64,000 bases of DNA from Candidatus Omnitrophota bacterium (GTDB lineage: Bacteria > Omnitrophota > Gorgyraeia > Gygaellales > Profunditerraquicolaceae): contig JAHFFR010000001.1 of assembly GCA_023247825.1 (NCBI GenBank), forward strand, positions 23,009 to 87,008, given 5' to 3'. Each line of letters opens with the position of its first letter. The first letter of the stretch is position 1. This document shows, in pieces, positions 42,636-59,506 of the stretch. Both the position numbers and the translations under genes were made by a program. Under the pieces are notes generated by a model, which worked only from the letters and a program-made list of their open reading frames with translations, was not told where the DNA came from and ran no database searches.

Positions 42636-43603
42636 ATAATAAGGTTATACCCTTCCATAAACAAGCTTCCGAAGAATAACCGTTTTACTTTCAAAATCTT
42701 GGTTTTCCCTTCTTTTTCCAGCTCCTGTAGTCTCGGCAAAAAACCTTGAGTATATCCCCGTTTTTTATGGAATTCTATAGCAAGATAGTCAACTAAATTA
42801 TCCTTTTCGTATAATTCAACTGTAGGCTCGACATGTACACACAATTCGGGGCTATTATCTAAAAGATACTGCAAAAAATTCTCAAATTTACTTGCTAATT
42901 GCTCAATTGAGCCAATCGTAAAGATCAAACTGTTCTCTTTGAGCCGAAAGCTTTGATCGGGATTGATCATATCAAAAATAGCACCCTTTAATTTTATATT
43001 ATACGCCTTAGCTATCGCATTAACTAAATCTACTGATGATTTTACAAAATCTGTGCCGTATAAATTTTTGTCCGGATACAGCTGAGAAAGAGCAACGAGA
43101 TTAAAACCCGTACCGCAGCCGAATTCATAAATATTGCTGAATTCTTTAAAATATCTGGCGAAAAGCCATTTTCTGAACACCAAATAATAATCCAGTTCAA
43201 AATTAGGATTGGCCGAACAGATGTAATTTTGTTTATAGCGGATTATTTTATTGGGCCGGATAAACTTAGGCACTAATTTTTGCAGATCATAATTACTATT
43301 AATAAAATCCTGCAAATTCTCGTTCCAGCCATTACTCCAGATGTCCTGACGCTCTTTAGCACCGATAATCTGCCTGTCGCTTTCCAACTTCTTTAAAACT
43401 TCCAGTATGACCTCGTCTCTCTTGCTGCCTTCCAAAATCTCATAAGTAAAATCTTTTCGGGTAATCAAATCAATGCATTCCTGCGATATACTGTTTTCAT
43501 CAGCACCGAATGATTCAATAAAATCATGAAGAGTAACCTTCGGCATTTTCATTGCTCCGTCTTTTTTATTAAAATTAAAATGGTCCCTTAAATTTCTTCT
43601 CAT
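42617..43603 (-). CDS. Class I SAM-dependent methyltransferase (a paralogue of 49805..50740)
   Basis: YEFGCGTGFNL motif I. About 45% aa identity to 49805..50740 over the C-terminal 200 aa. Confidence 0.6.
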   Translation of the reverse strand: MRRNLRDHFNFNKKDGAMKMPKVTLHDFIESFGADENSISQECIDLITRKDFTYEILEGSKRDEVILEVLKKLESDRQIIGAKERQDIWSNGWNENLQDFINSNYDLQKLVPKFIRPNKIIRYKQNYICSANPNFELDYYLVFRKWLFARYFKEFSNIYEFGCGTGFNLVALSQLYPDKNLYGTDFVKSSVDLVNAIAKAYNIKLKGAIFDMINPDQSFRLKENSLIFTIGSIEQLASKFENFLQYLLDNSPELCVHVEPTVELYEKDNLVDYLAIEFHKKRGYTQGFLPRLQELEKEGKTKILKVKRLFFGSLFMEGYNLIIWRPIK

Positions 43604-44615
43604 GGCTATAAAACTCTATGCCATCAAAACTCATCGGCTTTAATTTAAGCATATCCTCAACTTCTCTTATTATATTTTTTGCGTTAGGAAAAAATTCGTT
43701 CTCTAAATGCCTGGCAGTGGGACACGGTGTATGCGCGAAACCTATTCTTCTTACCGGGCTTTTGAGCTTTCCAAAGCACCTTGATGATACGCGCGCCGCT
43801 ACTTCAGCGCTAAAACCACAAAACAACCAATCATTATCAACAATAATACATCTACCCGTCTTCTCAACTGACGCCACAATACTTTCTTCATCTAAAGGGA
43901 CTATTGTTCTTGGATCAATTATTTCAACGTTAACACCTTCCTTCATTAGTAGCTCTGCCGCAAAAACCGCCTCTACGTTCATCCATGAAGTCGCGACTAT
44001 GGTAATGTCCCTGCCTTTACGTAAAATATTTGCCTTACCAAACGGCAAAGCATAAGAGGACTTAGGAACTCCTCCCTTTTGCCAATATAACCAGCGGTGT
44101 TCAATAAAAATTACAGGATTATCATCCCGAATCGCGGAGATAAGAAGCCCTTTAGCATCATAAGCCATCGTGGGTATAACAACTTTAATGCCTGGGATAT
44201 GAGCAAATACTGAATACATGCTTTTACTATGTTGAAAACCCTGTCCCCAGCCGCGACCTATAATTCCCCTTATCACCATAGGCACTTTAAGCTTTCCGCA
44301 AGATGAATAATTACTACATGAAAGCATATTAGCGATTTGGTTAAACGCTAAAAGCATAAAATCAATCCTAATATGGATATGTATCGGGCGCATGCCATTT
44401 AATGCTGCTCCTAAACCAAATCCGGTCATAGCATCTTCGGATAAAGGCGTGTCAAAACACCTCGTTTTGCCAAAACGCTTTACGAGCCCGGCAGTAGAAC
44501 CAAATATTGCCTTATGGTCAGGAACACCTATCCCATACACAAAAACTTTACCATCCCTTTCCATCTCCTGAATCATGGCCTCACGCAATGCTTCGCAATA
44601 TGTAATCTGTCTCAT
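43575..44615 (-). CDS. ThDP-dependent E1 beta subunit-like, second pair
   Basis: Homologous to 15724..16779. 346 aa. Confidence 0.8.
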   Translation of the reverse strand: MRQITYCEALREAMIQEMERDGKVFVYGIGVPDHKAIFGSTAGLVKRFGKTRCFDTPLSEDAMTGFGLGAALNGMRPIHIHIRIDFMLLAFNQIANMLSCSNYSSCGKLKVPMVIRGIIGRGWGQGFQHSKSMYSVFAHIPGIKVVIPTMAYDAKGLLISAIRDDNPVIFIEHRWLYWQKGGVPKSSYALPFGKANILRKGRDITIVATSWMNVEAVFAAELLMKEGVNVEIIDPRTIVPLDEESIVASVEKTGRCIIVDNDWLFCGFSAEVAARVSSRCFGKLKSPVRRIGFAHTPCPTARHLENEFFPNAKNIIREVEDMLKLKPMSFDGIEFYSHEKKFKGPF

Positions 44616-45571
44616 TGAAAAACTCCCTTATGCAATTCATCCGTACTGCTTAACTTAGCATTTTTTACGTTCTTTATAGTAAACACAACTTCATTCAATA
44701 TCTCTTTTTCTATTTTTTTAATCTCACCGTTAACATACCCGGATTTCATAAGTCTGATCCGCTGAAGACTGACAGGGTCTCTTTTAAGCCACTTTTTGAA
44801 TTCATCTTTCTTCCTGTATCCTGCATCAAAATCATAATTAATCCCCACATGTTCGAGATAACGGTAATATTTAAAATTCATGAAATATGGCTCTGGCTTT
44901 TTGCGCAGCACATCTATGGCCTTAGAAGTAAGATTATAAATTTCCTCCGCATCAGTAGAATCAATTTCAAGAGTCTGGCAACGGAATTTCTTAACGATTT
45001 CCGTTATAGAATTATATCCACGGCGCTCTTTTATATGACTATGAACAGCAAGCTCGTTGTCTTCACACACAAAAATTACCGGCAGCTGCATTAAACTGGC
45101 GATGTTTAAACTCTCCCAAAAAACACCCTCATCCACAGCGCCATCTCCAAAAAACGCAACAACAATTTTTCTGTTTTTATTTATCTTGTTTGCCCACGCA
45201 CACCCTACTGCGACAGGAATATGTGCAGAAACTATCGCTGATGTCCCCATAAATCCCTTTTTAGGCAGACATAAATGCATTGAACCACCTTTTCCTTTTA
45301 AGGAAGACGTCTCTTTTGCGTACATTTCAGCAAAAAATTCGTTTACATCGCCTGTTTTGGCAAGAAAAATAGAATGAGTCCGATATGTAGTAAATATCTG
45401 ATCGCTTTCGGTCAAAGCATGACAAACCCCGGCTGCAATAGCTTCATTCCCCATAGACATATGCATAGGAGTCTTCATCTCATCCTCATGATAATATTTC
45501 TGTATCTGTTTCTCTGCGCATCGAATCAGATACATCTTTTTATACAATTCTATACTAAGTTTTTTATTCAT
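44612..45571 (-). CDS. ThDP-dependent E1 alpha subunit-like, second pair
   Basis: GKGGSMHL motif. 319 aa. Confidence 0.8.
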   Translation of the reverse strand: MNKKLSIELYKKMYLIRCAEKQIQKYYHEDEMKTPMHMSMGNEAIAAGVCHALTESDQIFTTYRTHSIFLAKTGDVNEFFAEMYAKETSSLKGKGGSMHLCLPKKGFMGTSAIVSAHIPVAVGCAWANKINKNRKIVVAFFGDGAVDEGVFWESLNIASLMQLPVIFVCEDNELAVHSHIKERRGYNSITEIVKKFRCQTLEIDSTDAEEIYNLTSKAIDVLRKKPEPYFMNFKYYRYLEHVGINYDFDAGYRKKDEFKKWLKRDPVSLQRIRLMKSGYVNGEIKKIEKEILNEVVFTIKNVKNAKLSSTDELHKGVFQ

Positions 45572-45578
45572 TTGTCCT

Positions 45579-46190
45579 CTATTTCTCTACGGTTAATGCT
45601 TTCCAAGGGGAACGCTTGAGTTCAAATCTCCAATAATTTAAAACATCCTCTAAAGTCTGCTCCAAAGGAATAACTGGTTCCCACCCTGTTTCATTACGAA
45701 ACTTATCTATACACGGTATCTGTAAGGTTACGTCAGACGGCCGGAAGAGCTCAGGATCGACTTTTATCTCCGGCTTGACTTCGGAAAAAGAAATCAAAAT
45801 ATCCAGGGCCTCGCCGATAGTCATCGTCCGATTACCGCCGATATTATAGACTTCGCCCGGTTTACATTTACTGATCATAATCCAATACGCTTTCACTGCA
45901 TCAGGCACATCACAAAAGGTCCTCACGGATTTAAGATTTCCAACCCTGACAATCGGTTTACTTAGTTTCAATTCCGCGGCAGCAATCTGCTTTGCGAAAA
46001 ACATACTGCAAAAACATCTCCTCTCCTAGGTCCGGTATGAGTAAACATTCTAGTACGAATAGTCTTAATCCCATGCGACAACCAATATTGATATGTTACC
46101 ATATCTTCTCCAACCTTACTTACCGCATAAGGCGATACCGGCCTTAAGGGACAGTTTTCTCTAATGGGACTATTGCGAAATACCTCTTTT
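45579..46190 (-). pseudogene. 5'-truncated, frameshifted paralogue of the Gmd/Rmd-like gene at 56501..57514
   Basis: My own translation of 46190..46010 gives EVFRNSPIRENCPLRPVSPYAVSK...TIRTRMFTHTGPRRGDVF. A frameshift follows near 46005, then the ORF 45579..46004. Homology stops exactly at the inverted-repeat element at 46192. Confidence 0.6.
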
Positions 46191-46191
46191 T

Positions 46192-46282
46192 GTCATTCTG
46201 AGCACATTCGTTTCGCTCAGTGTAAACTCCGCGAAGAATCTATTTATCGTCGAGATTCTTCGGCCTTCGGCCTCAGAATGAC
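46192..46282. mobile_element. 91-bp MITE-like structured element with 11-bp terminal inverted repeats (GTCATTCTGAG ... CTCAGAATGAC) and nested internal palindromes
   Basis: Inner pairs are CGAAGAATCT/AGATTCTTCG and GGCCTTCGGCC. It sits exactly at the truncation point of the Gmd/Rmd pseudogene. There is no flanking T-run, so it is not a typical terminator. Confidence 0.45.
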
Positions 46283-46311
46283 GTAAAATTGGGAGTTTCG
46301 CAACAGCCCCC

Positions 46312-47646
46312 TCATGACACTTTCCACAATATCTTGTCTATTATCAATTTCAAACATGGCTTTAAACTTTCTTTTAAACGCTCTCCAAGTCTTTTAGGAA
46401 GAATCGGCCTTGCGGCTTTAAAACAAACATATGAGCATTTAAATAATAGCCAACGCCAATCCGTTATTCGCTGATACCAGAGATAGAAACAATACGATAA
46501 TTTATGAGAAAGAAACCAATCAGTGATTTTTAGCGATAACGCCTGAAAAAAAGGCAAGCTTCTCAGCCGCGGCCATGGGAACTCAATCGTTTTCCTTCCC
46601 CAGTTAGCTAAGATCGATTGATCATCTGCTTGATCCAACTGATAAGGATAATCTCTTTTAAAGAGCTTGCCAGGTGTTGCGGATGAAATTAATTCTTCTG
46701 TTTTATCCAAAACAATCTTCCAGAAACGGCGGGCCGAATAATACTGTTTTGTTTTGACATAACCATTATGAGCTATCCTGACCCTTTCGGCCTCGTTTTT
46801 CAGGTAATACCTGGCTTTTTTCAATAGGTCCGCATTTGAAAAATAAGGAACATAGTCAACATTAGGGATGAATAATTTGGCAGTTTCCGGAGCTGCTTCC
46901 TCCAGAAGCATAGCCCCGCAATTCGTAACTTCAAATGCCCGGGCATTAGTGACCGGAATATAACCGGGGCAGGAAAAACTCAAAACAATTTTAGAGCGCT
47001 GAAAAATTTCTGCAAATTCAGCAATAGGCAGGTGCTCTTCGTGTTCGCCTCCGGCACGATAAACTTTTAAACCATGTTTTTCAAGATACTTTATCCTCCG
47101 CAATCTAGCCAGTTTTGTCGAGCCGGGATAGCTAAGGTCAATATCTCTTTCTCTGCCAGGATCATAAAAATATTCGGGATTCTTCGGAACCCAAAAATAA
47201 GAAAATTTCTGCGGATCTTTCATACGCCGAAAAACTACGCTGGTAGCGGTAAACATATTGAAATCGATAAATGGCTGGAATACGTCCGATATTTTTACCA
47301 GTATTTCACATTCGAAATCCCCCCAAATAGCGAAGAACGGAATCGAAAAACGCTTTTTTATTGTTTCTAATGTCTTAAGGGACGGAGTATTAACAGCATC
47401 AGGAAAATTATAGATCACCAGACAGATTAGTTGAGGCCGGAATTCGGCTATTTTACTCAAAAGGGCCTCATCGCCTTTAGTCCCGGTTGTCCGGTAATAT
47501 TCGTCAAAATGGAAGACTTCCACTTCGGCCAAATTGACGGCTTGGAGAGACTGCCATAAATTGCCCTCCCAGGCCGATAGGCCCCAATCAATATTGCCGG
47601 AACACCACTTGTCCGCAACGAATAGTATCCTGGGTTTATTTATCAT
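46312..47646 (-). CDS. CgeB-like (Glyco_trans_1_2 / DUF3880-type) GT-B glycosyltransferase, tandem paralogue A
   Basis: C-terminal region AEFAEIFQRSKIVLSFS...NARAFEVTNCGAMLLEE. 444 aa. Confidence 0.55.
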   Translation of the reverse strand: MINKPRILFVADKWCSGNIDWGLSAWEGNLWQSLQAVNLAEVEVFHFDEYYRTTGTKGDEALLSKIAEFRPQLICLVIYNFPDAVNTPSLKTLETIKKRFSIPFFAIWGDFECEILVKISDVFQPFIDFNMFTATSVVFRRMKDPQKFSYFWVPKNPEYFYDPGRERDIDLSYPGSTKLARLRRIKYLEKHGLKVYRAGGEHEEHLPIAEFAEIFQRSKIVLSFSCPGYIPVTNARAFEVTNCGAMLLEEAAPETAKLFIPNVDYVPYFSNADLLKKARYYLKNEAERVRIAHNGYVKTKQYYSARRFWKIVLDKTEELISSATPGKLFKRDYPYQLDQADDQSILANWGRKTIEFPWPRLRSLPFFQALSLKITDWFLSHKLSYCFYLWYQRITDWRWLLFKCSYVCFKAARPILPKRLGERLKESLKPCLKLIIDKILWKVS

Positions 47647-47647
47647 G

Positions 47648-49036
47648 TTAATTTATCTTCTCTTTTTTGTCGCTATTTACAATCCAGGAACTCAATCCAC
47701 AACCCTTGTATTCGCATGCCAGCCATTTTACCATAAATGCGGCGCATGGTTTTAAATATTCTTTTAAGCTATCCCCCAGCCCCTTGGGTAGAATATACCT
47801 TATGGCTTTAAAGAACCCGTATGAGCAGTTGAACATAAACCGGCGCCAATCCTTTATTCGCTGATAACGAAGATAGAAAAAATACAATAATTCATAAGAA
47901 CAGAACCAGTCGGTAACTTTCAGCACCACCGCCTGAACACGTGATAACTTTCTTAGACGAAACCAGGGAAGATCGATAGTTTTTCTTCCCCAGTTAGCCA
48001 GGATCAATTGGTCATCGGCCTGATCCAGCTGATAAGGTTGGCCCCTATCGTAAATTACATCGTCCGATCTGCCCGAAATAACTTCGTCAGTTTTAGCTAA
48101 AATTATTTTCCAAAAACGATAAGCTGAATAATATTGCTGTGTTTTTAGCTTACCTGAATTTGCTATTTTCACTCTTTCGGTTTCATTTTGTAAATAATGC
48201 AGGGCTTTATTTAACATATCTTTATTCGAAAAATAAGGCGCGTAATCCACATAGGGTATGAATAATTTTGCGGTTTCGGGGTTAGTTTCGTCCAGAAGCA
48301 TGGCCCCGCAATTCATAACTTCAAATGTTCGCGCGCAGATAATCTGCGTATAGCCGCTTTGGGAAAAACCAATAATAATTTTAGCACGCTGAAAAATCTC
48401 GGCAAATTCCGCAAGCGGTAAATTCCCTTGACGTTCGCCTCCGGCACAATAAACTTTTAAACCATGTTTTTCCAGATATTTTATTCTTCGTAATCTGTGC
48501 GGGTTCATGCCTCCGGCAAAGCCTATATCTATATCTCTTGAACGTCCGGGATCATAAAAATACTTGGGATTTTTCGGCACCCAGAAATAAGAGAACTTTT
48601 TCGGATTTTTCCAACGCCTAAAAGGCGCGTTCGTGGCGGTAAAGGCATTGAAATCAATGAAAGGCCCAACTATATCTGATACACTCATCAGGCTTTCCGA
48701 TTGTGGATCCCCCCAGATGGCAAAGAGCGGAATGGAAAAACGTTTTTTTATCATTTCCAGCGTTTGCAGGGATGGCATATCAATAGTACCGAGAAAATTA
48801 TTAGCCACCAGGCAAATCGCGCTAGGCTGAAATTCTGCTATTTTCTCTAAAACGGCCTCATCGCCCCTGATTCCATTTACGCGATAATACTCGTCAAAGT
48901 GAAAGACTTCCACTTCAGCCAAATTGACAGCTTGAAGAGACTGCCATAAATTGCCCTCCCAGGCCGAGAGGCCCCATTCAATGCGGCCGGAACACCACTT
49001 GTCGGCAATAAATAAGATTCTGGGCTTGTTAATCAT
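47648..49036 (-). CDS. CgeB-like GT-B glycosyltransferase, tandem paralogue B
   Basis: About 70% aa identity to 46312..47646. The 5' ends are about 90% identical at the DNA level. Confidence 0.55.
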   Translation of the reverse strand: MINKPRILFIADKWCSGRIEWGLSAWEGNLWQSLQAVNLAEVEVFHFDEYYRVNGIRGDEAVLEKIAEFQPSAICLVANNFLGTIDMPSLQTLEMIKKRFSIPLFAIWGDPQSESLMSVSDIVGPFIDFNAFTATNAPFRRWKNPKKFSYFWVPKNPKYFYDPGRSRDIDIGFAGGMNPHRLRRIKYLEKHGLKVYCAGGERQGNLPLAEFAEIFQRAKIIIGFSQSGYTQIICARTFEVMNCGAMLLDETNPETAKLFIPYVDYAPYFSNKDMLNKALHYLQNETERVKIANSGKLKTQQYYSAYRFWKIILAKTDEVISGRSDDVIYDRGQPYQLDQADDQLILANWGRKTIDLPWFRLRKLSRVQAVVLKVTDWFCSYELLYFFYLRYQRIKDWRRFMFNCSYGFFKAIRYILPKGLGDSLKEYLKPCAAFMVKWLACEYKGCGLSSWIVNSDKKEKIN

Positions 49037-49040
49037 AATA

Positions 49041-49757
49041 TCATCCTTTCTTAATAATCATAGCTTGATCAGAATAATAAAATCTATTGATAACTTTATT
49101 AGCCAGATTAAATCCAGTAATCGCCTTTCCTTGCAATACAATTATTTCTTCCGGCTTGTCTTTTAAAAATTCACTCACCGCCTTTTTAGCTCCCGGCAAA
49201 TATCTGTTATAATAATCGTGAATCAGAATAACTCCGTTTTTCACCATCAGAGGATAAAAGAATTTTAACCCATCAAGCGTCGACTCATAAATATCCGCAT
49301 CCAAATGCACAAAGGAAAACCTGAGTGATTTTTTTCCCAATTCAACAACGCTATCCGGAAATATCCCTTCATAGAAAAAAATATTATCATACTTAGCCAA
49401 ATAATCTTTTACCTCGCTCAAAGACCCACCTCTGATTTCTCCTCTGTTTATTTTATTAATCGAAAACTCATTGGGCGGCAAGCCGGAAAAAGTGTCAAAT
49501 AAATGCAGCGATCGCCTACCCTTAATCTCACAGATCAATTTTGCGCTTCCCCCAGAAAAAACTCCAAGCTCAGCGATATCCCCGGGGAGCATTGCTGTAT
49601 TTTTAACTCTGTAATAAATATTCCACATCTCCCCGAAACCTAATAATATCTTTTTTTCACCCGAGAGCTGTCTGACCAGTCTTTTAAATTTTATTTCAAA
49701 AGCAATGATAAATCTCGCAAAAACTCTCCCCATGTTTATAATGATAATGTTCTTCAT
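49041..49757 (-). CDS. TylF/MycF (macrocin-O-methyltransferase)-family sugar O-methyltransferase
   Basis: FVHLDADIYESTLDGLKFFYPLMVKNGVILIHDY. 238 aa. Confidence 0.65.
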   Translation of the reverse strand: MKNIIIINMGRVFARFIIAFEIKFKRLVRQLSGEKKILLGFGEMWNIYYRVKNTAMLPGDIAELGVFSGGSAKLICEIKGRRSLHLFDTFSGLPPNEFSINKINRGEIRGGSLSEVKDYLAKYDNIFFYEGIFPDSVVELGKKSLRFSFVHLDADIYESTLDGLKFFYPLMVKNGVILIHDYYNRYLPGAKKAVSEFLKDKPEEIIVLQGKAITGFNLANKVINRFYYSDQAMIIKKG

Positions 49758-49804
49758 CAGCGGCTCCTCATAAAATTATTGGCTTCTAAATAATTTTAAT
49801 ACAT

Positions 49805-50740
49805 TTATGCTATGGGAGTCCAAATAATAACAGAATAGCCTTCAATAAAAAAACTGCCCACGTAATTCCTTTGGGCTTTAATGATTTTTACTTTCCCTTT
49901 TGATTCAAGATCTTTAAGGTAGGTCAAGTAACCGCTAAGGTAGTTTCTTTTCTTAAAATAACGTATTGAAAGATAGTCCAAAAGATTTCCTTGATCCAAT
50001 AATTCTTCTACAGGTTCGGCATGAATACAAATACTCGGCTTATTTTTAAGGAGATAATCTATAAATGAATGATATTTTGATCCTATTTGTTCAAGGGAGG
50101 CAACAGTATATATGGCTGAGCCCTGCTTTAGTTTCAAGCTAAAATCCGGATTAAAATAATCGAATTTTTTGGCGAATAGCTTTTTATCAGAGTTAACAAG
50201 CGCATATTTATTAATCATGTCCTGCGACGACTTAGCCCAATCAAGCCCCCAAAGGTTAGCTTTGGGATTAAACGATCTTAATCTGACTAAATTGTGTCCG
50301 GTTCCACAACCAAATTCATAAATATTTTCATAATCTTTAAGATATTTATCAAACAACCAATCTAGGATAACTCCGAGCATATTATACTCAAAATTCGGGG
50401 AAACAGGCCTGATAAACTTTTGCTTCAATCTGTTTATCTCGTGCTTTCCAAAGTAACGAGGTATCATCGCGTCACTAGCGTTTCCTTTCAATAACTCATC
50501 TAAATTCTGTCTCCATCCTTTTTCCCATTGTTCATACCTATGCTCTCCGGAATACATAAAATCTCCACTTTGCAAAACTGATATGATTTTACTGAAGCAA
50601 CTATCGCGCTCTTCAGGAGTAAGATTCCTGTATCTTAAATTATATTTCTTTATTCGGTTTTTGACGCACGAGCTAAGCGATTCCCCAAACAACGATTCAA
50701 AATCACCTGGAGTTAAAATGTGTTCACGCGACTCCGTCAT
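49805..50740 (-). CDS. Class I SAM-dependent methyltransferase (a paralogue of 42617..43603)
   Basis: YEFGCGTGHNL motif I. 311 aa. Confidence 0.6.
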   Translation of the reverse strand: MTESREHILTPGDFESLFGESLSSCVKNRIKKYNLRYRNLTPEERDSCFSKIISVLQSGDFMYSGEHRYEQWEKGWRQNLDELLKGNASDAMIPRYFGKHEINRLKQKFIRPVSPNFEYNMLGVILDWLFDKYLKDYENIYEFGCGTGHNLVRLRSFNPKANLWGLDWAKSSQDMINKYALVNSDKKLFAKKFDYFNPDFSLKLKQGSAIYTVASLEQIGSKYHSFIDYLLKNKPSICIHAEPVEELLDQGNLLDYLSIRYFKKRNYLSGYLTYLKDLESKGKVKIIKAQRNYVGSFFIEGYSVIIWTPIA

Positions 50741-50746
50741 TTTCTA

Positions 50747-51685
50747 CTATTTCCTTATTTTCGGATAATTAGAAACAAACCACTTTACTGTTTCTTCAAT
50801 TCCTTTTTCTATGGATGTAAATTCAAACTTCGGCAAATATTTTCTTAATTTTGTAGTGTCTGACGGTTTTCTAAACTGCCCTTCGGGTTTTGTCGTATCA
50901 AATATTACCCTACCTTCAAATCCAATTTTCCTAACAATAACATCGACAATGTCCATTATTGATGTTTCTATGCCGTGCGACAAAATAATGGAATACTCTT
51001 CGCTATAATTTTCTAAAGCCCATATCGCCAATTCCGCGATATCCTTTGAATACACCATTTCTCTTAGCGGCTTCCCGCTACCCCAGAGCACAAGGTCTGT
51101 GTTATTTTTCATTGCCAAATAGCATTTGTGTATCAAAGAAGGGATAACATGGCCGTCTTCTAAATTGAAATTATCATTAGGACCATAAGCATTTGTCGGT
51201 ATAGCTACAATATAATCGCATCCCCATTCTTTTCTATAAGCGACGCTCTGAACTTCAAGCATTCTTTTTGCATAAGCATACCCAAAATTTGACGGGTGAG
51301 GCGGGCCATTATGAATATCCTTTTCATTAAGCGGATATTGACAAGCTTCAGGAAAAACACATGTAGACATAAAAGAAACGAGCTTCTTAACACCACATAA
51401 ACGCGCTGCCTCAAGGACATTGATGTTTATCATTATGTTATTGCAAAAATATTCCCCGGAATGTATCATATTACCGCCTAATCCCCCTACTTGAGCGGCA
51501 AGATGAATTACCTTATCCGGCTTGATTACATTAAAAACATCTTTTGTTGCTGTGAAATCTGTAAGATCCGCGTCTTTTCTTGTCAAATAGGCCATTTCGG
51601 GTAAACCAAGACTCGTGATGGCATGTCCGATAAGACCCCCGGCACCGGTAACCAGTATCTTAGGCATTATCATCCTCTCCCACAC
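50747..51685 (-). CDS. GDP-L-fucose synthase (Fcl)-like epimerase/reductase, copy 3 (most canonical)
   Basis: ILVTGAGGLIGHAI, GYAYAKRM (YxxxK) and GPNDNF motifs. 312 aa. Confidence 0.8.
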   Translation of the reverse strand: MWERMIMPKILVTGAGGLIGHAITSLGLPEMAYLTRKDADLTDFTATKDVFNVIKPDKVIHLAAQVGGLGGNMIHSGEYFCNNIMININVLEAARLCGVKKLVSFMSTCVFPEACQYPLNEKDIHNGPPHPSNFGYAYAKRMLEVQSVAYRKEWGCDYIVAIPTNAYGPNDNFNLEDGHVIPSLIHKCYLAMKNNTDLVLWGSGKPLREMVYSKDIAELAIWALENYSEEYSIILSHGIETSIMDIVDVIVRKIGFEGRVIFDTTKPEGQFRKPSDTTKLRKYLPKFEFTSIEKGIEETVKWFVSNYPKIRK

Positions 51686-52722
51686 GGTACATTATCATGC
51701 GCATAAAGCAGCTTCTGCCATTCTATGGTCTTCTTGAGCCCTTCAGTAAAGTCAACATATTCTTTTTTGTTAAATTCATGTTCAGCCTTCGACATGTCTA
51801 AAAAAACATCTTCCGGGGCACCGGCCAAGCCTTCAGGTAAATTGTCCGGGCAGGTAACTGGTACTTTTAGATAGTCGCCGATCTTGCGCGCAAGATCCAT
51901 TATCGTAACGCTCGAATGGCCGCCTACGTTGTAAATCGCTTCGGAGCCCTTAAAAAGTATATTCCACATTATATCGACTGCATCGCTTACATAACAATAT
52001 GTCCTCTTTGCCCGTCCATGATCCAGCAAGGATATCCCGCCTTTCAAACCTTTTCGTATAAATTCGTTGATCACTCGCTTGTCTCCATCTTTTGTTCCGG
52101 GTCCGTATGCAAGCGATAACCTTGCGGACTTCGCCTTAACTCCCTTCTGCCTGTAGGCGTTACAAATTGCTTCCCCACACCTCTTCGCCTCAATATAACA
52201 AGCTCTTGGATGGTCCGTATTAGTCGAACCGACGTCGGTTTCTACATGCGGAATGCGCTTCTGCCCGGTATAGATTTCACTTGTACTTAAAAACAACAAC
52301 TTACCATTGGCGGCAAGTTTATCAAAAAGTTCGAACAACACAACGGTATTCAATTTGATGGTCTTTACAGGATCCTGCAAAAATCTGCCGGGCTGGCCAT
52401 ATCCCGCCGCATGTATGATATAGTCGGCCTTAGGCAAGCCGCGGCAAACATCGACACCCGTTAAATCCCCCCGGACTATCTCCGACCCATCGAATCCGGC
52501 TATATCTTTAAAATATTCCGCCGGCTCACTATTAACGGTACTGTAAACTTTGAAAGGCAGCCTTTTTTTTGTCTTTAAATAATTAAGGCTGGCCAGGAAA
52601 TGCGTTCCGACTAAACCGGACGCGCCTGTTATGATTATGCTTTTATCTTTTATCTCCTCAAAATCTACCCATTCGCAGACCGTTCGCGCGTCTTCTAGTA
52701 TCAATTCAGCAAGTCTATTCAT
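51670..52722 (-). CDS. NAD-dependent epimerase/dehydratase (extended SDR)
   Basis: IIITGASGLVG and YIEAK motifs. 350 aa. Confidence 0.7.
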   Translation of the reverse strand: MNRLAELILEDARTVCEWVDFEEIKDKSIIITGASGLVGTHFLASLNYLKTKKRLPFKVYSTVNSEPAEYFKDIAGFDGSEIVRGDLTGVDVCRGLPKADYIIHAAGYGQPGRFLQDPVKTIKLNTVVLFELFDKLAANGKLLFLSTSEIYTGQKRIPHVETDVGSTNTDHPRACYIEAKRCGEAICNAYRQKGVKAKSARLSLAYGPGTKDGDKRVINEFIRKGLKGGISLLDHGRAKRTYCYVSDAVDIMWNILFKGSEAIYNVGGHSSVTIMDLARKIGDYLKVPVTCPDNLPEGLAGAPEDVFLDMSKAEHEFNKKEYVDFTEGLKKTIEWQKLLYAHDNVPCGRG

Positions 52723-53596
52723 TTATGAGGCTCCCCAGCTTCAAACGAATATTTTGCGGCGTCAAACCAATACATTGATTATGATCTTGGGCTTTTCCAT
52801 ATTGAGTTAAAAAGACATGCGGAACTCCTATATGCTCAATCTTAACGCTATTAATGCCAACTGATTTTATAACATCATAATCCAAGGCACCTGAATAATA
52901 TGGTTCGCATATGAGTATCTTTGAGGATGCGCAGTTTTGCCTTAAAGTTTCCACGTCAAATGGTTCTAACGAAGTATAATATAAAATTGTAATATCAATA
53001 TCAACACAAGCAGACATTACATCTTCCAAAACAGGGCCTACCGCAATTATGGTAGCCTTGGCCCCCCTTTTTAATACTGCAGCCTTACCAAATTCAACAC
53101 TGTTAGGTAATGAATTACCCTTTTCGGTCAATCTGAAATATGTAGCTCTTCCGTTAGTGTAAGACTGCTGAAACAGCCTATCAAACTCTTCGGGGTGACC
53201 AGGGACAACAATTTGCATGCCTGGGACATTCTTTAGGATTCCAACATCACCCGGGCAGTGATGCGTACAACCAAGAGCGGCATAGTCGAATGAACTGCCC
53301 ACGCTTATAAAATTACCACCAAGATTTTGGTAGCAAAAGTCGATTTTGATCTGTTCCAAGCTTCTTTCGACAATGAAAGGAGCAATAGTATGCACAACTG
53401 GAATAAATCCCTCTGAAGATAATCCCGCTGCAAGCCCCACAGTAGCCTGTTCTAAAATACCGGCATTATACATCCTATCAGGATATTTTTCGAAAGCACG
53501 CCTAAAACCAAAAACCCCAATGTCTCCGAGCAATACAATCAATCTACTATCCTGTTCAAGAACCGACTCAATAGTTTTAACAAATTGTTGTCTCAT
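52715..53596 (-). CDS. Transketolase C-terminal subunit, second split pair
   Basis: A paralogue of 10173..11093. 293 aa. Confidence 0.85.
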   Translation of the reverse strand: MRQQFVKTIESVLEQDSRLIVLLGDIGVFGFRRAFEKYPDRMYNAGILEQATVGLAAGLSSEGFIPVVHTIAPFIVERSLEQIKIDFCYQNLGGNFISVGSSFDYAALGCTHHCPGDVGILKNVPGMQIVVPGHPEEFDRLFQQSYTNGRATYFRLTEKGNSLPNSVEFGKAAVLKRGAKATIIAVGPVLEDVMSACVDIDITILYYTSLEPFDVETLRQNCASSKILICEPYYSGALDYDVIKSVGINSVKIEHIGVPHVFLTQYGKAQDHNQCIGLTPQNIRLKLGSLINE

Positions 53597-53598
53597 TA

Positions 53599-54360
53599 TC
53601 AGTCCAAGCTCTTAAGAATTTCTATCAACTCATCTTTTGTGGGTGACCTGTGATGCCATGCAGGATTATTTTCCATCACTTTACATCCTCTTCCTTTTAT
53701 CGTATTGGCAATAACAGCTACGGGTTTATCTTTAGGAGTATCCCTCAAGGCATTATATATTTGTTCGTGATCATGCCCATCAATCTCACAGCTCCTCCAT
53801 CCAAAAGCTTCGAATTTCATCGCAAGATCGCCAACGTTCAAAGCTCTGTCGGTCGAATGATTGTAATCAATTATGCATATGAGATTGTTCAATTTATGAT
53901 GCGCCGCCAAAAGCACCGCCTCCCAAACAGAGCCTTCGTTGCATTCACCGTCTCCGATTATTGTAAATACCTTTGAAAACGATTTTTTTATCTTCAGAGC
54001 TAGGGCAATCCCAACAGCCATAGGGAATCCATGGCCTAAAGAACCTGTTGAAGCTTCCACGCCAGGAATTTTATTCCGGTCAGGATGGCCTCCTAAAATA
54101 GAATCATATTTTGCAAAATTATCTATTAGCGATTTGTCAAAAAACCCTTTTTCAGATAAAACAACATAAAGGCCAAGCGAAGCATGGCCTTTGCTTAAAA
54201 TAAATCTATCACGGCCGGGGTGAATAGGATCATGAGGATATACATTCAGGATTCTGTCATATAATACCCACAATATATCCAGCACGGACAAGGCACTCGG
54301 GATATGCCCTTCTCCCATATTTGCCGCTATCGTAATTATTTTCTCAACAAATCTTTTCAT
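53599..54360 (-). CDS. Transketolase N-terminal (ThDP-binding) subunit, second split pair
   Basis: GHPDRNKIPGVEASTGSLGHG and GDGECNEG motifs. About 50% identity to 11090..11878. Confidence 0.85.
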   Translation of the reverse strand: MKRFVEKIITIAANMGEGHIPSALSVLDILWVLYDRILNVYPHDPIHPGRDRFILSKGHASLGLYVVLSEKGFFDKSLIDNFAKYDSILGGHPDRNKIPGVEASTGSLGHGFPMAVGIALALKIKKSFSKVFTIIGDGECNEGSVWEAVLLAAHHKLNNLICIIDYNHSTDRALNVGDLAMKFEAFGWRSCEIDGHDHEQIYNALRDTPKDKPVAVIANTIKGRGCKVMENNPAWHHRSPTKDELIEILKSLD

Positions 54361-54374
54361 ATTTAAACTTTGCC

Positions 54375-55682
54375 CTACTTTTTATTAAGCTCCCATTTGG
54401 TGCCGCCCAGCACACAACACCAATTATTAGCTCCCTGTCCATACCGCAGCATCGTCGAACCTGTTTCAACAACATTAAACCGCAAAGCATCTTCACGCGC
54501 ATCTATAACGTACGTATTAGGATGATGCGCATACAACCGAACAACATATCTGTCGGGTACGAGAAAGTTAGCTTTAAGCCACACCGACGTTTTGCGTAAA
54601 CCGGGCTTAAGTTCCGCAAACTCCTTATTGTTGCCGTCAGATAAACTGGAGAATAATACCTTAACGCCAAGCGAATTTTCTAATACAACGGTGACTTCCG
54701 TATTTGCGGTCAGGCTTATTACCTGAAATTCAAGACCAATCATAAACGGTTTCAATACGTCTACATTCACGGTTAAATTACCCTGATCGTCGGTTATCCA
54801 TGCCCGAGTGAAAGACACATTAGCGCCCGGACGCGGAATAAACTCAACAGCAGCGCTTGCTATCTCGTTCTTATCCGAAAGGTATTGTTCTATAACAGAC
54901 GCTGCCTCGCCCTGAGCCGCCAATTTACCCCTATCGAGTAAAATTGCTTGCGGGCATAATGTTCGCACCATCGGAATATTGTGGCTCACGAATAATAATG
55001 TTCGCCCATCCTTAGTCAAGTCGCTCATCTTACCCAGGCACTTCTTCTGAAAGACAATGTCTCCCACTGCCAGAACTTCGTCTACCAGTAGAATCTCTGA
55101 CTCCAGATGAGCGGCTACCGCGAAAGCCAGCCGCACGTACATGCCGCTTGAGTAACGTTTCACCGGCGTATCAAGAAAACGCTCCACCTCGGCAAACGCC
55201 ACTATTTCATCAAATTTCTTTTTTATTTCAACTCGGCTCATGCCAAGAATAGCGCCGTTAAGATATATATTTTCACTTCCGGTAAGCTCAGGATGAAATC
55301 CGGTCCCTACTTCAAGCAGACTTGCCACGCGCCCCTTGCTGGAGACCCTACCTTTAGACGGCTCCGTAATACGGCTCAAGATCTTCAAGAGGGTGGTTTT
55401 ACCCGCGCCATTACGCCCAATGATCCCGATACGATCCCCCTGACATATATCAAATGAGACATTCTTGAGCGCCCAGAATTCTTCAACTGTTGAATCTTTG
55501 TTTTTTACAGCACCCCTCTTAAAAAGCCTCCTTCCCGCTTCTTTGACTGAATTCATAATTACATCGCGAAGGGCTGTGTAGCGCCGCTCCTGATGCTCGT
55601 GACGCAGCATATATTTTTTACCCAGATTTTCGATTTTAATAACAGTTTTCATAATAACATTAGATAAAGTCCGCGAAAACAC
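54375..55682 (-). CDS. wzt: ABC polysaccharide exporter ATPase with a C-terminal ~180-aa extension (putative glycan-terminus-binding domain)
   Basis: Walker A GRNGAGKTT, signature YSSGMYVRLAF, Walker B ILLVDEVLAVGD, followed by a beta-rich C-terminal domain. 435 aa. Confidence 0.85.
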   Translation of the reverse strand: MFSRTLSNVIMKTVIKIENLGKKYMLRHEHQERRYTALRDVIMNSVKEAGRRLFKRGAVKNKDSTVEEFWALKNVSFDICQGDRIGIIGRNGAGKTTLLKILSRITEPSKGRVSSKGRVASLLEVGTGFHPELTGSENIYLNGAILGMSRVEIKKKFDEIVAFAEVERFLDTPVKRYSSGMYVRLAFAVAAHLESEILLVDEVLAVGDIVFQKKCLGKMSDLTKDGRTLLFVSHNIPMVRTLCPQAILLDRGKLAAQGEAASVIEQYLSDKNEIASAAVEFIPRPGANVSFTRAWITDDQGNLTVNVDVLKPFMIGLEFQVISLTANTEVTVVLENSLGVKVLFSSLSDGNNKEFAELKPGLRKTSVWLKANFLVPDRYVVRLYAHHPNTYVIDAREDALRFNVVETGSTMLRYGQGANNWCCVLGGTKWELNKK

Positions 55683-56499
55683 GCTCCGTTTTTCTGAAGT
55701 ACCATAATCCCGCCAACAATAGTAAAGCCATGACCAATGAAGAAGCTATAAAACCGGGCCAGTAAATCTGCTCGTTCCCGCCTAAGATCGCCCACCGGAA
55801 ACCGTCTATTACGCCCACCATCGGATTGAGGGAATAAAGCAAGCGCCATTTTTCGGGAATAATACTGCTAGAAAATCCGACCGGCGAGATGTATAGCCCC
55901 AATTGAAGAACGAAAGGGACGATATAACGAAAATCGCGATATTTAACGTTTAATGTCGCCAGCACGAGCCCGGAACCAAACGAAACCATAAAGGCCAAGA
56001 ACAGAAAAAGCGGAAGGATAATAATATGCCAGCTGGGGGTAAAACGGTAGCAGATCATGAGAACTATGAGGATAGCAAAAGAAATGGCAAAGTCAACCAG
56101 GCTTACAATCACCGTACTTGCAGGGATCACTAGCCGCGGAAAATACACCTTAGTGAGCATATTGGCATTAGATATTAAAGAGCCGCTGCTGTCACTCAGT
56201 CCATTTGCGAAAAATTGCCAGGGGAGCATAGCGGCGAATACTAATACCGGATAAGGCACATGGCCGGAGGGTAGCTTCGCAAGTTTACCAAAAATAATAG
56301 TAAAAACAACCATAGTCAGCAGAGGACGAATAACACTCCAGGCAATACCAATGACTGTCTGCTTATAGCGCACGAGCACATCGCGCCAGGCAAGAAATAA
56401 GAATAATTCTCTATAACGCCACAGATCCTTCCAGTAATGGAGCTCTGTTCGTCCTGCTTCAATTATCAAATCATAATCTGAATTAGTATTTGGATTCAT
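55660..56499 (-). CDS. wzm: ABC-2 polysaccharide exporter permease
   Basis: Six TM helices. Its stop overlaps the wzt start. 279 aa. Confidence 0.8.
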   Translation of the reverse strand: MNPNTNSDYDLIIEAGRTELHYWKDLWRYRELFLFLAWRDVLVRYKQTVIGIAWSVIRPLLTMVVFTIIFGKLAKLPSGHVPYPVLVFAAMLPWQFFANGLSDSSGSLISNANMLTKVYFPRLVIPASTVIVSLVDFAISFAILIVLMICYRFTPSWHIIILPLFLFLAFMVSFGSGLVLATLNVKYRDFRYIVPFVLQLGLYISPVGFSSSIIPEKWRLLYSLNPMVGVIDGFRWAILGGNEQIYWPGFIASSLVMALLLLAGLWYFRKTERVFADFI

Positions 56500-56500
56500 T

Positions 56501-57514
56501 TTAGCGTGTCAGGAAATGTCTCCCTGGTTTTACCCTGTCTCTCCAGTAATCAAGCAAATCTTTCATTGTTTTTTCAAAAGGTATCTCGGGTTTCCAACCT
56601 GTATGAGCTTTGAATTTTTTTGTATCAGGGACCTGCAGGTCGGCATCAAGGGGGCGCAGCCTGCTTTTTTCTGTTTCAACTTTTATATTCTTAGCAGTGG
56701 AGATGGAAAGCAAGTAGTTAAGCATTTCCCTTACCGTACAAGTGTAAGTGCCGCCTATATTGTAATATTCGCCCGCTATCGGATTGATAGTTACCAGCAT
56801 AAAATATGCTCTTACCGCATCCCGGACATCTGCCCATGTACGCAGAGAATCTAAATTGCCGGTTTTTACTATAGGCGGTATCATCTTATATTCTATCATA
56901 GCGATCTGTTTCGCAAAGGTGGATTCGGCAAAGACATCGCCGCGGCGGGGCCCGGTATGAGTAAACATCCGGGTAACAATAACTTTTTGTCCATACGCTT
57001 CGGCATGGAACCTGCCTGACAGATCAGTGCCTGTTTTTGAAATTGCGTAGGGCGAGGCTGGATGAAAAGAGCAGTTTTCGTTTATCGGCAATTTTTCTTT
57101 AGCGACTCTTCCGAAAATCTCAGACGAAGAACATACATGGATAATAGGATCAATGTCGTGGCACCTTCTCAATGCCTCAAGCAATCTCTCGGTTCCAAGA
57201 ATATTCGTGTCCAGGGTATGAATGGGGGAACTAAAACTTATAGTCGGATAACTCTGCGCAGCGAGGTGAAAGACGTAATCCGGACGGCTTTCCTCAACAA
57301 CATTCTGCAACGAAATATAGTCGCATAGATCGCCATATACGAAATAAACGCGATCTTTCCTGTTAGCTCGATCAAGAAGATGTTGAACATTATCTAAAGG
57401 GCTGCGCCATCGGCACATGCCGTAAATATCCCACCCGGTATTTCCCAATAAGAAATCGGCCAAATGGGAACCGACCATACCGCTAATTCCGGTAATAAGG
57501 GCTCGTTTTTTCAT
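56501..57514 (-). CDS. Gmd-family NDP-sugar 4,6-dehydratase or 4-reductase (Gmd/Rmd-like)
   Basis: ALITGISGMVGSHL, YAISK and FTHTGPRRG motifs. 337 aa. Confidence 0.8.
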   Translation of the reverse strand: MKKRALITGISGMVGSHLADFLLGNTGWDIYGMCRWRSPLDNVQHLLDRANRKDRVYFVYGDLCDYISLQNVVEESRPDYVFHLAAQSYPTISFSSPIHTLDTNILGTERLLEALRRCHDIDPIIHVCSSSEIFGRVAKEKLPINENCSFHPASPYAISKTGTDLSGRFHAEAYGQKVIVTRMFTHTGPRRGDVFAESTFAKQIAMIEYKMIPPIVKTGNLDSLRTWADVRDAVRAYFMLVTINPIAGEYYNIGGTYTCTVREMLNYLLSISTAKNIKVETEKSRLRPLDADLQVPDTKKFKAHTGWKPEIPFEKTMKDLLDYWRDRVKPGRHFLTR

Positions 57515-58263
57515 TATTTATCACCCCTAGATTTTTCAGTCTCGACAGATCTTTTAACCTTATTAAAAAAAGATTCTGCTTCCTTATACGAGCTTGATGT
57601 GCCAATATCGATAAATTTCGCATCTTGCGGAAATGCAAATAATCCGCTACCAATCATCTCCGGAAAAAAATTATTTTCGAGTGAGATATTTTCCTTTTCC
57701 CTTATTAACGCCACCGATCCGCGGTTTATGCAATATATTCCGGCGTTGATCCACCCGCTTTTGATATCCGCGCTTTTTTCATCAAAGGAAGTAACCATGT
57801 AATTTGAGTCAAAATTGACGCAGCCGTATCTGCTTACATCCGGTACGCGAACCAGGGCCAGTGTGCATGACGATTTTCTTAAAAGATGCCATTCTAATAA
57901 ATTCTGCGGATTAATCCCGCAGTAGGAGTCTCCGTTGTAAACCATAACCACATCGGATTTTATCATATCAAACGCATTTCTTATTGCGCCTGCCGTACCT
58001 AAAGGCTCTTGCTCTTTTGAATAACGCAGTGAAAGCGCCTTATACCTACTACCCAATAATTTTTCGATTTGTTCACCCATGAACCCTGTGCATAAAGTTA
58101 CATCCTTACCGCCCGCATTTGAAATTTGTTCGAGAATAAACGTAATGAACGGGCGCCCGGTAACTTCGGCAAGAACTTTTTGCCGGTCAGAAACTATTAA
58201 CCGCAACCTCTTGCCAAGCCCCCCACATAGAATCAATATGCTGATTTGAGACAGGTTATCCAT
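57514..58263 (-). CDS. Sugar-1-phosphate nucleotidyltransferase, HddC (heptose-1-P guanylyltransferase)-like
   Basis: ILCGGLGKRLR (G-x-G-x-R-L) motif. 249 aa. Confidence 0.75.
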   Translation of the reverse strand: MDNLSQISILILCGGLGKRLRLIVSDRQKVLAEVTGRPFITFILEQISNAGGKDVTLCTGFMGEQIEKLLGSRYKALSLRYSKEQEPLGTAGAIRNAFDMIKSDVVMVYNGDSYCGINPQNLLEWHLLRKSSCTLALVRVPDVSRYGCVNFDSNYMVTSFDEKSADIKSGWINAGIYCINRGSVALIREKENISLENNFFPEMIGSGLFAFPQDAKFIDIGTSSSYKEAESFFNKVKRSVETEKSRGDK

Positions 58264-58408
58264 CTAAACTCCGCTTTGCACCAACACAAGTAACATTACT
58301 TTGCTAGAAAATATTGTTAACTTTTTACCCTAACTCCTGCTATTCTACCGCTAAACCAATTACGCCTGCGCCTATAATCAAAATGTCAATTTTTCCATTA
58401 GTTTAGAT

Positions 58409-58439
58409 CGGGGACAGTCCCAAAAAACGGGACAGTCCC
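58409..58439. repeat. REP-like element copy A: GGGGACAGTCCC-AAAAAAC-GGGACAGTCCCC (two 11-13-bp hairpins)
   Basis: Each unit GGGAC-A-GTCCC is a self-complementary hairpin. Copy B is near-identical, down to the 3' flank TCTATT. Confidence 0.8.
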
Positions 58440-58441
58440 CT

Positions 58442-58660
58442 CTATTCGCCACCAATAGACGGCACCTGGAGTAAAACTGAAATTCTGTAGATTCTCGGAG
58501 AGAATAAGATACACCCGAACCCTATGGCACAAATTAATAGGAATACTCCAAAAAAAGTATTTTTGCGTTTAGCAAATAATTTGAAACACTGATACAGATC
58601 TATTTCCGCCTCCTCAAAATTGAACTGAGTTATTTGATCCATGCTACTGGCACCTCTCAA
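58442..58660 (-). pseudogene. Orphan N-terminal fragment (~70 aa) of a Wzz/GumC-type chain-length-determinant protein
   Basis: EIDLYQCFKLFAKRKNTFFGVFLLICAIGFGCILFSPRIYRISVLLQV has the typical Wzz N-terminal TM pattern. The ORF ends at REP copy A and has no downstream continuation. Confidence 0.45.
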
Positions 58661-58915
58661 TTTGCTGCCTACTTATTACTATCATTGATCTTGCCTAAAG
58701 AGATAGCCAGCTTCGTAGAAAGCTCCCGCTGCGTAACAGCAGGCTGAGACTCTATCTCTTTGATAATAATGAGGTTCTCTTCCTTTAAGGAGGATTGTTC
58801 AGGCATTGAACAGATATTTTAACTCGTTAGATAAGAAAGTCAAGTTCTTTAAGGGGATTTTTTTGGATTTAAATAGAAAAGGTGAGGCTTCTAGTTATTT
58901 AGGACGAGATCCCTG

Positions 58916-58946
58916 CACTGAGCGAAGCGAATGTGCTCAGGATGAC
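58916..58946. repeat. Partial inverted copy (29/31 nt identical) of the left arm of the 46192 MITE-like element
   Basis: cactgagcgaagcgaatgtgctcaggatgac matches the reverse complement of 46192..46222 (cactgagcgaaacgaatgtgctcagaatgac). Confidence 0.6.
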
Positions 58947-58982
58947 GATGAAATTCAGGATTCCCCCCCCAGAATAAGTATA

Positions 58983-59459
58983 TTACTCAAGTAACCGCGC
59001 AAAAGTCTTTGATTCAAGGAAATTAACTTCACCTGGCTCTTCAAGAAACCGGCTGACATCATTTCTAACTTTTGCCCAATCTAATCCCTCGGCAACTTTT
59101 CTAATTTCTGATTTCCAGTTTTGCGAATCAATCTTAACTGGCTCTTGCGATGTCTGAGCCATAGCGTTATTGAGCATAATATAATTCGGCTCTAGTTCTT
59201 TAAATTTTGTCAAATACCACAATAAATCATACCAATCCCTTCCCTTAGTATACTTGCGGCACAGAAGTGCATGCACTTTACCTGCAAGTAAAGAAGCTAA
59301 ATCATAATGAAGGACATAGAACATAGATGTTGAATTATACACATCGCTAACCTCCAAACCCCCCTGAGGCGGCTTGGAGTCAATCTCCACTTTGATAAAA
59401 ATCTTTTGTGTTTTTAACGGGCTTAAACCTGTTTCAAAAAGGATGTCGGAGAATGTCAA
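58983..59459 (-). pseudogene. N-terminally truncated AbiEii/AbiGii-family (DUF1814) nucleotidyltransferase toxin, C-terminal ~55% only
   Basis: VHALLCRKYTKGRDWYDLLWYL matches the family C-terminal signature. The N-terminal NTase motif is absent. REP copy B lies immediately upstream. Confidence 0.55.
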
Positions 59460-59474
59460 GGAAAACTTGATGTC

Positions 59475-59505
59475 GGGGACAGTCCCAAAAGGCGGGACAG
59501 TCCCC
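59475..59505. repeat. REP-like element copy B: GGGGACAGTCCC-AAAAGGC-GGGACAGTCCCC
   Basis: Lies between the ORF6N stop and the start of the AbiEii fragment. Confidence 0.8.
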
Positions 59506-59506
59506 T

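Follow-up and report, generated by a model that had tools for sequence, protein, structure and literature searches.

The window analyzed here is a 64,000-nt stretch of a contig from a Candidatus Omnitrophota bacterium, and the region considered below is part of a long polysaccharide cluster in which the local genes are all on the minus strand. An element of 145 nt without coding capacity (46166-46310) separates the stop codon of a glycosyltransferase gene (Glyco_trans_1_2; 46312-47646, minus strand), with which the upstream polysaccharide cassette ends, from a 5′-truncated GDP-mannose-4,6-dehydratase-like pseudogene (45579-46165, minus strand) that corresponds to residues ~136-330 of its orthologue. 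The truncated gene has an intact paralogue (GDP_Man_Dehyd, 337 aa) at 56501-57514, also on the minus strand. The original prediction had described 45579-46190 as a homologue of this paralogue with a frameshift near 46005, and both statements were confirmed. The stretch represents the C-terminal two thirds of the protein and is 52% identical to the paralogue from about residue 143, and comparison with the orthologous protein P0001 traces the single frameshift to the loss of 1 nt from a T run (about 46000-46005). A 141-aa open reading frame follows the frameshift (45579-46004, minus strand; MFFAKQIAAAEL...). Because its ATG sits exactly at the frameshift site, the C-terminal fragment could still be translated.

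The remnant is most similar to Omnitrophota proteins, with 87% amino acid and 78% nucleotide identity for P0001, which is encoded at locus L243 (MAG GCA_050012075.1). The dehydratase gene at L243 is intact (330 aa), and downstream of it are the same E1-dehydrogenase and transketolase-like genes as in the window. The 145-nt element is absent from L243, and no TGTC-tagged hairpin unit of the kind described below was found in the 17 kb of that locus. Nucleotide homology between the window and the orthologue extends from 45271 to 46173 (78%), and protein homology starts at 46168. Homology therefore stops at the outer end of the 145-nt element and not at 46192, the end point that had been claimed.

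Comparison of 43575-58263 with L243 revealed a mosaic cluster, in which the adjacent E1-dehydrogenase (E1_dh) and transketolase-like products are 57% and 63% identical to their counterparts, compared with 87% for the pseudogene. Each of the two cassettes has a dehydratase gene together with a pair of thiamine-enzyme genes. The stretch 58264-59890, which lies upstream of the first cassette, consists of gene debris. It includes a winged-helix-like fragment, a fragment that by eye resembles the N terminus of a Wzz-type chain-length determinant, part of an AbiEii toxin gene (58983-59459; profile positions 96-229 only), and an ORF6N-domain open reading frame.

The 145-nt element and its hairpin core

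The ends of the element were placed at 46166 and 46310 by end-to-end alignment with metagenome relatives. The left terminal inverted repeat is GGGACTATTGCGAAATACC (46166-46184, plus strand), the outer arm of a palindrome and a 19-mer that bounds about 20 small elements; the right one is GGGGCTGTTGCGAAACTCC (46292-46310, read on the minus strand). The two repeats match at 15 of 19 positions, and both fit the family motif GGGRCTRTTGCGAAAYWCC. The longer arms at 46166-46191 and 46285-46310 are 73% complementary, with the palindrome extending beyond the inner 11-mers. The element is flanked by an imperfect 5-bp target-site duplication, CTAAT at 46161-46165 and CTCAT at 46311-46315 (4/5 matching; chance about 0.016). 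The right copy overlaps the glycosyltransferase stop codon (46312-46314). Read on the minus strand, the left copy is ATTAG, the first bases of the pseudogene remnant, and ATTAG is also present in the orthologue. Where the orthologue reads CCG ATT AGA GAA, the window has the end of the repeat (...CCC) followed by ATT AGA GAA; the remnant therefore begins with the ATTAG copy of the duplication.

The element was originally taken to be 91 bp long (46192-46282), with 11-bp terminal inverted repeats and nested palindromes. The inverted repeats (GTCATTCTGAG and CTCAGAATGAC) and the nested palindromes (CGAAGAATCT and AGATTCTTCG) are indeed present, yet these 91 nt are the core of the element only, and the 11-mers are the heads of internal REP-like units and not its termini. 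Unit heads carry no duplication of their own in 127 of the 139 doublets among the loci listed. Unit A (46192-46241, plus strand) has the tag TGTC, the stem ATTCT/AGAAT, a GAG...CGA core, and a conserved 29-nt apex, CACATTCGTTTCGCTCAGTGTAAACTCCG. Unit B (46254-46282, minus strand) reads GTCATTCTGAG-GCCGAAGGC-CGAAGAATC and is predicted to fold into a 5-bp stem, a GA/GA internal loop, and GGCC-GAA-GGCC. Between them lies a spacer (46242-46253; CTCGACGATAAATAG on the minus strand) for which the family consensus is CTCGTCGATAA(A/C)TAG. Each half of the core thus has the form GTC-ATTCT-GAG-apex-CGA-AGAAT-C, and the whole unit type can be written [T/C]GTC-A-stem-GAG...CGA-stem'. The invariant 5′-UGAG/5′-CGAA core corresponds to a tandem G.A internal loop, and simple apexes are mini-hairpins of the GCGNAGC type. 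Hammerhead-like and K-turn identities were considered for this core and rejected, as it has neither a CUGAUGA core nor a 3-nt bulge.

The conserved apex (46203-46231 in the window) follows the pattern CACATTCGCTTCGCTCAGTG(T/C)A(A/G)(A/G)CTCCG, and the stems beneath it differ widely in sequence. By eye, its opposite strand can be arranged as an inverted basic unit, and the apex may thus represent a unit nested within another.

The whole element has a predicted free energy of −58.6 kcal/mol on the transcribed strand (z = −6.85 against shuffled sequence). Folding of the 91-nt core, a check proposed with the original prediction, also gave structures far better than those of shuffled sequence on both strands (z = −4.8 and −3.7). 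The window as a whole had no match to any Rfam family at gathering score, and for the element region at E values up to 10 the sole sub-threshold match was to ilvH, at 16 bits against a 55-bit cut-off. Position 1 of an independently assembled Logan contig (L003) is window position 46282; this assembly thus breaks off precisely where the inner hairpin unit has its head. Such a break is expected if the unit is repeated in the sample, as assemblies break at repeats.

The 64 kb contain one complete copy (46166-46310) and one decayed copy only, and no transposase gene with these ends was found within them. The decayed copy (58880-58946, minus strand) lies 12.6 kb away and was first noticed as a 31-nt inverted match at 58916-58946. 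This match, which covers a unit head and apex, has 29 of 31 identical positions (two mismatches; none expected by chance), and it is accompanied by the spacer-like sequence CTCGTCCTAAATAACTAGA. The copy aligns with the element over one unit and the spacer only, with no recognizable second unit and no clear terminal repeats. It thus belongs to the same family, as proposed, as a decayed and partial member.

Relatives of the element and a candidate transposase

A metagenome collection was scanned for the end motif GGGRCTRTTGCGAAAYWCC, which yielded 115 loci, a number estimated to be near chance level for a motif of such degeneracy; most of these loci lie in genes and represent chance matches. In 15 loci, the motif is located 7 to 9 nt outside a TGTC unit. 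Among TGTC doublets from loci collected earlier, 15 of 124 have outer inverted arms within 60-nt flanks, compared with about 1 expected. With 24-nt flanks, almost no flank complementarity was found family-wide. A systematic search identified 19 distinct complete copies of 100 to 205 nt, all of which align end to end with the window element, spacer included. Their common layout is repeat, linker, unit, CTCGTCGATAA(A/C)TAG, inverted unit, linker, and inverted repeat. One copy (L277) has a complex apex like that of the window element, on the corresponding unit. In total, about 20 complete and more than 15 truncated or larger relatives occupy unrelated loci on different metagenome contigs, and sample Ga0105164 accounts for at least nine of them. 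JGI metagenomes contained no exact match to the central 23-mer of the window copy; the window variant itself is not known as multicopy.

Target-site duplications in further copies had been proposed as a check on mobility, and they were found: 16 of the 19 complete copies have perfect 5-bp direct duplications (chance about 0.001 each). The duplicated sequences are AATGT, ACGTT, TTATT, ATCAT, ATGAT, GTAAT, GTGTT, TAAAT, ATTTA, TTGAT, CTATT, AATAG, CATTG, AAGTT, and ACAAG, with one of these 15 present in two copies. Copies with duplications at unrelated loci bear out the idea of a small non-autonomous mobile element, although not the anatomy first given for it (91 nt with 11-bp terminal repeats). 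A local inverted duplication of the start of the pseudogene by fold-back or template switching had also been considered as the source of the outer arms (local score 14; p about 0.001) and was rejected because the same arms bound other copies.

A candidate source of transposase was found at locus L258, which contains a 1,367-bp IS5-like insertion sequence. Its left end, GGGACTGTTGCGAAATACC, is identical to the MITE repeat at 19 of 19 positions, and its right end is ...TTTTGCAACAGGCCC. The 329-aa product has DUF772 and DDE_Tnp_1 domains, and its full-length match to NCBIfam IS5_4 scores 131 bits, slightly below the cut-off of 140. This IS is nested in another IS with only 17 nt of flank, where the duplication length is unreadable. 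IS5-family elements of L271 and its close Bradyrhizobium relatives (NF033581, 285 bits) have the ends GGGGCTGTTGCG(A/T)AATTC, which are related to the MITE repeat, and the Bradyrhizobium IS is flanked by 5-bp duplications at eight genomic copies (six perfect and two matching at 4/5). The combination of these ends with a 5-bp duplication is therefore an IS5-type signature. As a separate observation, the 1,125-bp Bradyrhizobium IS (L360-L367, 542-1666 in each) lies in every case within the 5-nt loop of a REP-like hairpin, CCTTCTCCC-CTTGC-GGGAGAAGG, and it duplicates this loop.

The element in the window has the features of a MITE: terminal repeats, no coding capacity, a 5-bp duplication, relatives at unrelated loci, and an IS that shares its end. 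Given the duplications of its relatives, the identical end in L258, and the 5-bp duplications in Bradyrhizobium, sequence comparison indicates that 46166-46310 is very probably a non-autonomous MITE of IS5 type. An IS with the ends GGGRCTGTTGCGAAAT would provide, in trans, an IS5-family DDE transposase that binds the terminal repeats and then cuts and pastes the element into a target with a 5-bp stagger. The target at this locus would have been AT(T/G)AG on the minus strand, comprising the glycosyltransferase stop codon and the first bases of the dehydratase remnant. When transcribed within the one-directional gene cluster, the element should form a very stable stem-loop (−58.6 kcal/mol), which, to judge from its predicted fold, could be a barrier at the 3′ end of the mRNA, as REPs are.

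Like other DDE-derived bacterial MITEs, the element is short (145 bp), non-coding, intergenic, and strongly structured, with a terminal repeat identical to one end of a transposase-encoding IS and a target duplication of fixed length. It differs from them in its interior, which is unrelated to the candidate parent IS. This interior is not IS derived and consists of two [T/C]GTC-tagged REP-like hairpins in inverted orientation, a doublet also found alone and inside other putative MITE families. TIMEs, the Tn3-derived inverted-repeat miniature elements, have a 5-bp target duplication and a 38-nt repeat whose ends start with GGGG. The window element shares the duplication length and the GGGG start, but its repeat is 19 nt long and has no known similarity to Tn3-family repeats. 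A Tn3-type TIME was rejected, as the matching autonomous elements encode IS5-type and not Tn3-type transposases. Published bacterial MITEs include RUP, NEMIS/Correia, ERIC, and Nezha (PMC3733652). Literature searches with the element sequence returned primers and unrelated matches only. The MITE family with these ends is new and of IS5 type, and no published description of it was found.

History of the truncated gene

Two histories of the truncation fit the locus about equally. The duplicated bases match at 4 of 5 positions (chance about 0.016), which suggests that the junction between the glycosyltransferase gene and the remnant existed first and that the MITE inserted into it at AT(T/G)AG. 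This history needs a coincidence of insertion position of roughly 1%, the frequency at which a random neutral insertion would strike the junction.

The original prediction held the element, or recombination at it, responsible for the truncation, and in our estimate this explanation falls not far short of an even chance. The MITE would have entered the intact gene at ATTAG first, and an adjacent deletion or replacement starting from the far end of the element would then have brought in the upstream cassette, mediated either by the transposase or by homologous recombination with another copy, for which the one at 58.9 kb is an example. Such a sequence of events accounts for the start of the remnant 0 to 5 nt from the element end. 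It is consistent with the orthologue, which has ATTAG at this position within an intact gene followed by the same downstream genes, and with the partial inverted copy at the other border of the 12.6-kb cassette; the 1% coincidence also counts in its favor. It leaves the 4/5 match of CTCAT with CTAAT to coincidence, however, while simple insertion into an existing junction would give just such a match. In addition, the N-terminal part of the gene (135 codons) was found nowhere in the window, and no allele in an intermediate state was found in the sequence collections searched, JGI metagenomes included.

Hairpin units within and beyond the element

Viral contigs were scanned for GTCATTCTGAG-N10-40-CGAAGAATC, which gave more than 120 loci among the matches listed, and a collection with one genome per species was scanned for the apex 21-mer GAGCACATTCGYTTCGCTCAG, which gave at least 118 genome loci; the host genome of the window was not among them. 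Real phages, with genes for terminase, capsid, and portal proteins, are among the viral matches. Among the matches listed, apex-bearing MAGs are labeled Chloroflexota, Omnitrophota, Methylomirabilota, Nitrospinota, Deltaproteobacteria, Planctomycetota, Bacteroidota, Saccharibacteria, Gammaproteobacteria, Firestonebacteria, and others, and hairpin units occur in MAGs labeled as at least 10 phyla. Unit A of the window (50 nt) is 98% identical to copies in MAGs labeled Chloroflexi, Planctomycetia, and Delta- and Gammaproteobacteria.

The 5-bp stem varies among units (ATTCT, ATTGC, ATCCT, ATTCC, ATCCC, ATTTC, and ACCCT). Each head type is found almost only with its own complementary tail, and the head-by-tail table is nearly diagonal. 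Since the genome loci were chosen by the apex alone, covariation in them is unselected evidence of intrastrand pairing. The base preceding GTC is mostly T (281, with 25 C; n = 324 among the matches listed). At the listed loci, doublets are predominantly arranged tail to tail with the tags outside (143 convergent versus 19 divergent, with tags inside); their median length is 98 nt, and 90 of the 143 are heterodimers. Genes enriched beside units or enclosed by two units were only phage structural and housekeeping genes, with no transposase enriched.

A search for empty sites among the fetched loci yielded one untidy indel polymorphism. Two related phage contigs (L114, 697-780, and L072, 4399-4680; 83% identical) differ by a TGTC doublet in a conserved, apparently coding region, and the contig without the doublet has 23 unrelated nt at the site. 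Elsewhere, five doublets form a tandem array with a period of about 86 nt at the end of a viral contig (L068, 8519-8980), and an Omnitrophota MAG locus (L135, 1900-7400) has a unit in each intergenic spacer, in sense orientation throughout. The apex also occurs inside GTAG-tagged REPs of the Nitrospinota MAG JBHIBA01 (GTAG-CCGCGATTT-GAG...CGG-AAATCGCGG), with differing stems at L130, L161, L198, L201, L205, and other loci.

The internal units resemble the CGTC/TGTC-tagged REP superfamily in anatomy, without its fully paired stem. CGTC-tagged REPs, described by Di Nocera, De Gregorio, and Rocco in 2013, include Neisseria dRS3 and Rickettsia RPE-4/6; many of the repeats have TGTC as the tag, with A-T at the first two stem positions, and the repeats form doublets with tags outside and heterodimers, with no dedicated transposase (PMC3733652). 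The published families have fully paired 8- to 9-bp stems and 4- to 5-nt loops, e.g., GTCATTCCCGCGAAAGCGGGAATC (PMC3733652). Window-type units share the unpaired [C/T]GTC tag and a stem that starts A-T, T-A, and they likewise form tags-outside doublets that are frequently heterodimers, with spacers of 20 to 100 nt and no dedicated transposase. They differ in that the stem is 5 bp long, the internal loop consists of tandem G.A pairs, the length of the apex ranges from roughly 3 to 60 nt, and the units travel inside a terminal-repeat MITE. Peptide signatures of the hairpin family (VILS...) are absent from the tables of PMC3733652.

The same features favor an account of the element not as a MITE but as a REP doublet of REPIN or BIME type, moved or maintained via single-stranded hairpins by a RAYT-type Y1 transposase. 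Inverted hairpin units with covarying stems, tags outside, heterodimers, and heads without duplication (at the listed loci) would all be accommodated, as would the fit to the description of CGTC/TGTC-tagged REPs (PMC3733652) and the same apex in GTAG-tagged REPs of the Nitrospinota MAG. REPINs and BIMEs (mobilized by RAYT, TnpA-REP) are also inverted doublets of imperfect hairpins, with heterotypic pairs such as Y and Z REPs. Y1 transposition, however, yields neither the outer repeats nor the 5-bp duplication, both of which are common to about 20 relatives, and the window units have TGTC in place of a GT[AG]G tag. No association with a RAYT was found. The sole RAYT gene encountered (Y1_Tnp; IMG/VR contig L032, 1045-1855) has GTGG-tagged REP doublets of its own on either side, and the TGTC units on that contig lie 3.8 kb from it and are not associated with it. 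The lack of an enriched transposase near the units also counts against this account; PMC3733652 likewise reports none for CGTC REPs. A pure REP/REPIN reading, first prompted by the lack of duplications at the GTCA heads, was dropped once the outer arms were seen to bound other copies, and we now regard it as improbable.

Least probable is that the sequence is an immobile local hairpin acting as an intrinsic terminator or mRNA stabilizer of the glycosyltransferase operon, since its place one base (46311) downstream of the stop codon in a one-directional cluster and its very stable fold are outweighed by the same sequence at unrelated loci with duplications, the balanced orientation of single units relative to genes (33 sense, 35 antisense), the lack of an Rfam match at gathering score, and, for a terminator in particular, the lack of a T/U run after the stem on either strand and of any match there in a terminator scan. 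The preferred reading therefore remains that of an IS5-type MITE carrying a REP-like hairpin doublet.

Hairpin doublets are also found between other terminal arms. Putative MITEs with a doublet as their core include L127 (3540-3770; arm CAGGGCTTTTCCAAAGTC, 9-bp duplication GTGGGAACG), L043 (13200-13440; arm CAGGTYGCTGAAARACT, duplication CTAG), and L031 (1280-1530; arm AAATTCCRGTTTAKCGAWCT, duplication of about 6 bp, CTCTTC), and a doublet may also form a MITE core at the viral-contig loci L065, L026, and L109 (arm GTAAATGATCGTTT...). The arms of these other doublet-bearing elements are unrelated in sequence. The doublet is thus the core of at least four putative MITE families, including that of the window, with duplications of 5, 9, 4, and about 6 bp. 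Since it is found inside several element types as well as in GTAG REPs, it looks like a module common to transposon families and REP types. This hairpin module is under-described and is a more interesting lead than the MITE itself. One tentative reading, which we consider somewhat unlikely, is that the module is a structured single-stranded DNA or RNA element, independently selected or mobile, that has been repeatedly captured by transposons or that invades hairpin loops. Its features in that reading may include the tandem sheared G.A pairs and either the GNA-type mini-hairpin apexes or the 29-nt apex that resembles a nested inverted unit.

At this locus, the structured element is selfish DNA that marks a polysaccharide cassette junction and not a regulatory RNA. 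For the family, a concrete pair of MITE ends and a candidate IS5-type transposase are now available for testing. CGTC-type REPs have so far had no known way of spreading, and one possible route between genomes and phyla is suggested by the hairpin doublets that several terminal-repeat elements carry as cargo and that also occur in phages. If the hairpin module is indeed independently selected or mobile, its enzyme or partner would be the missing mobilization system of the CGTC REPs.
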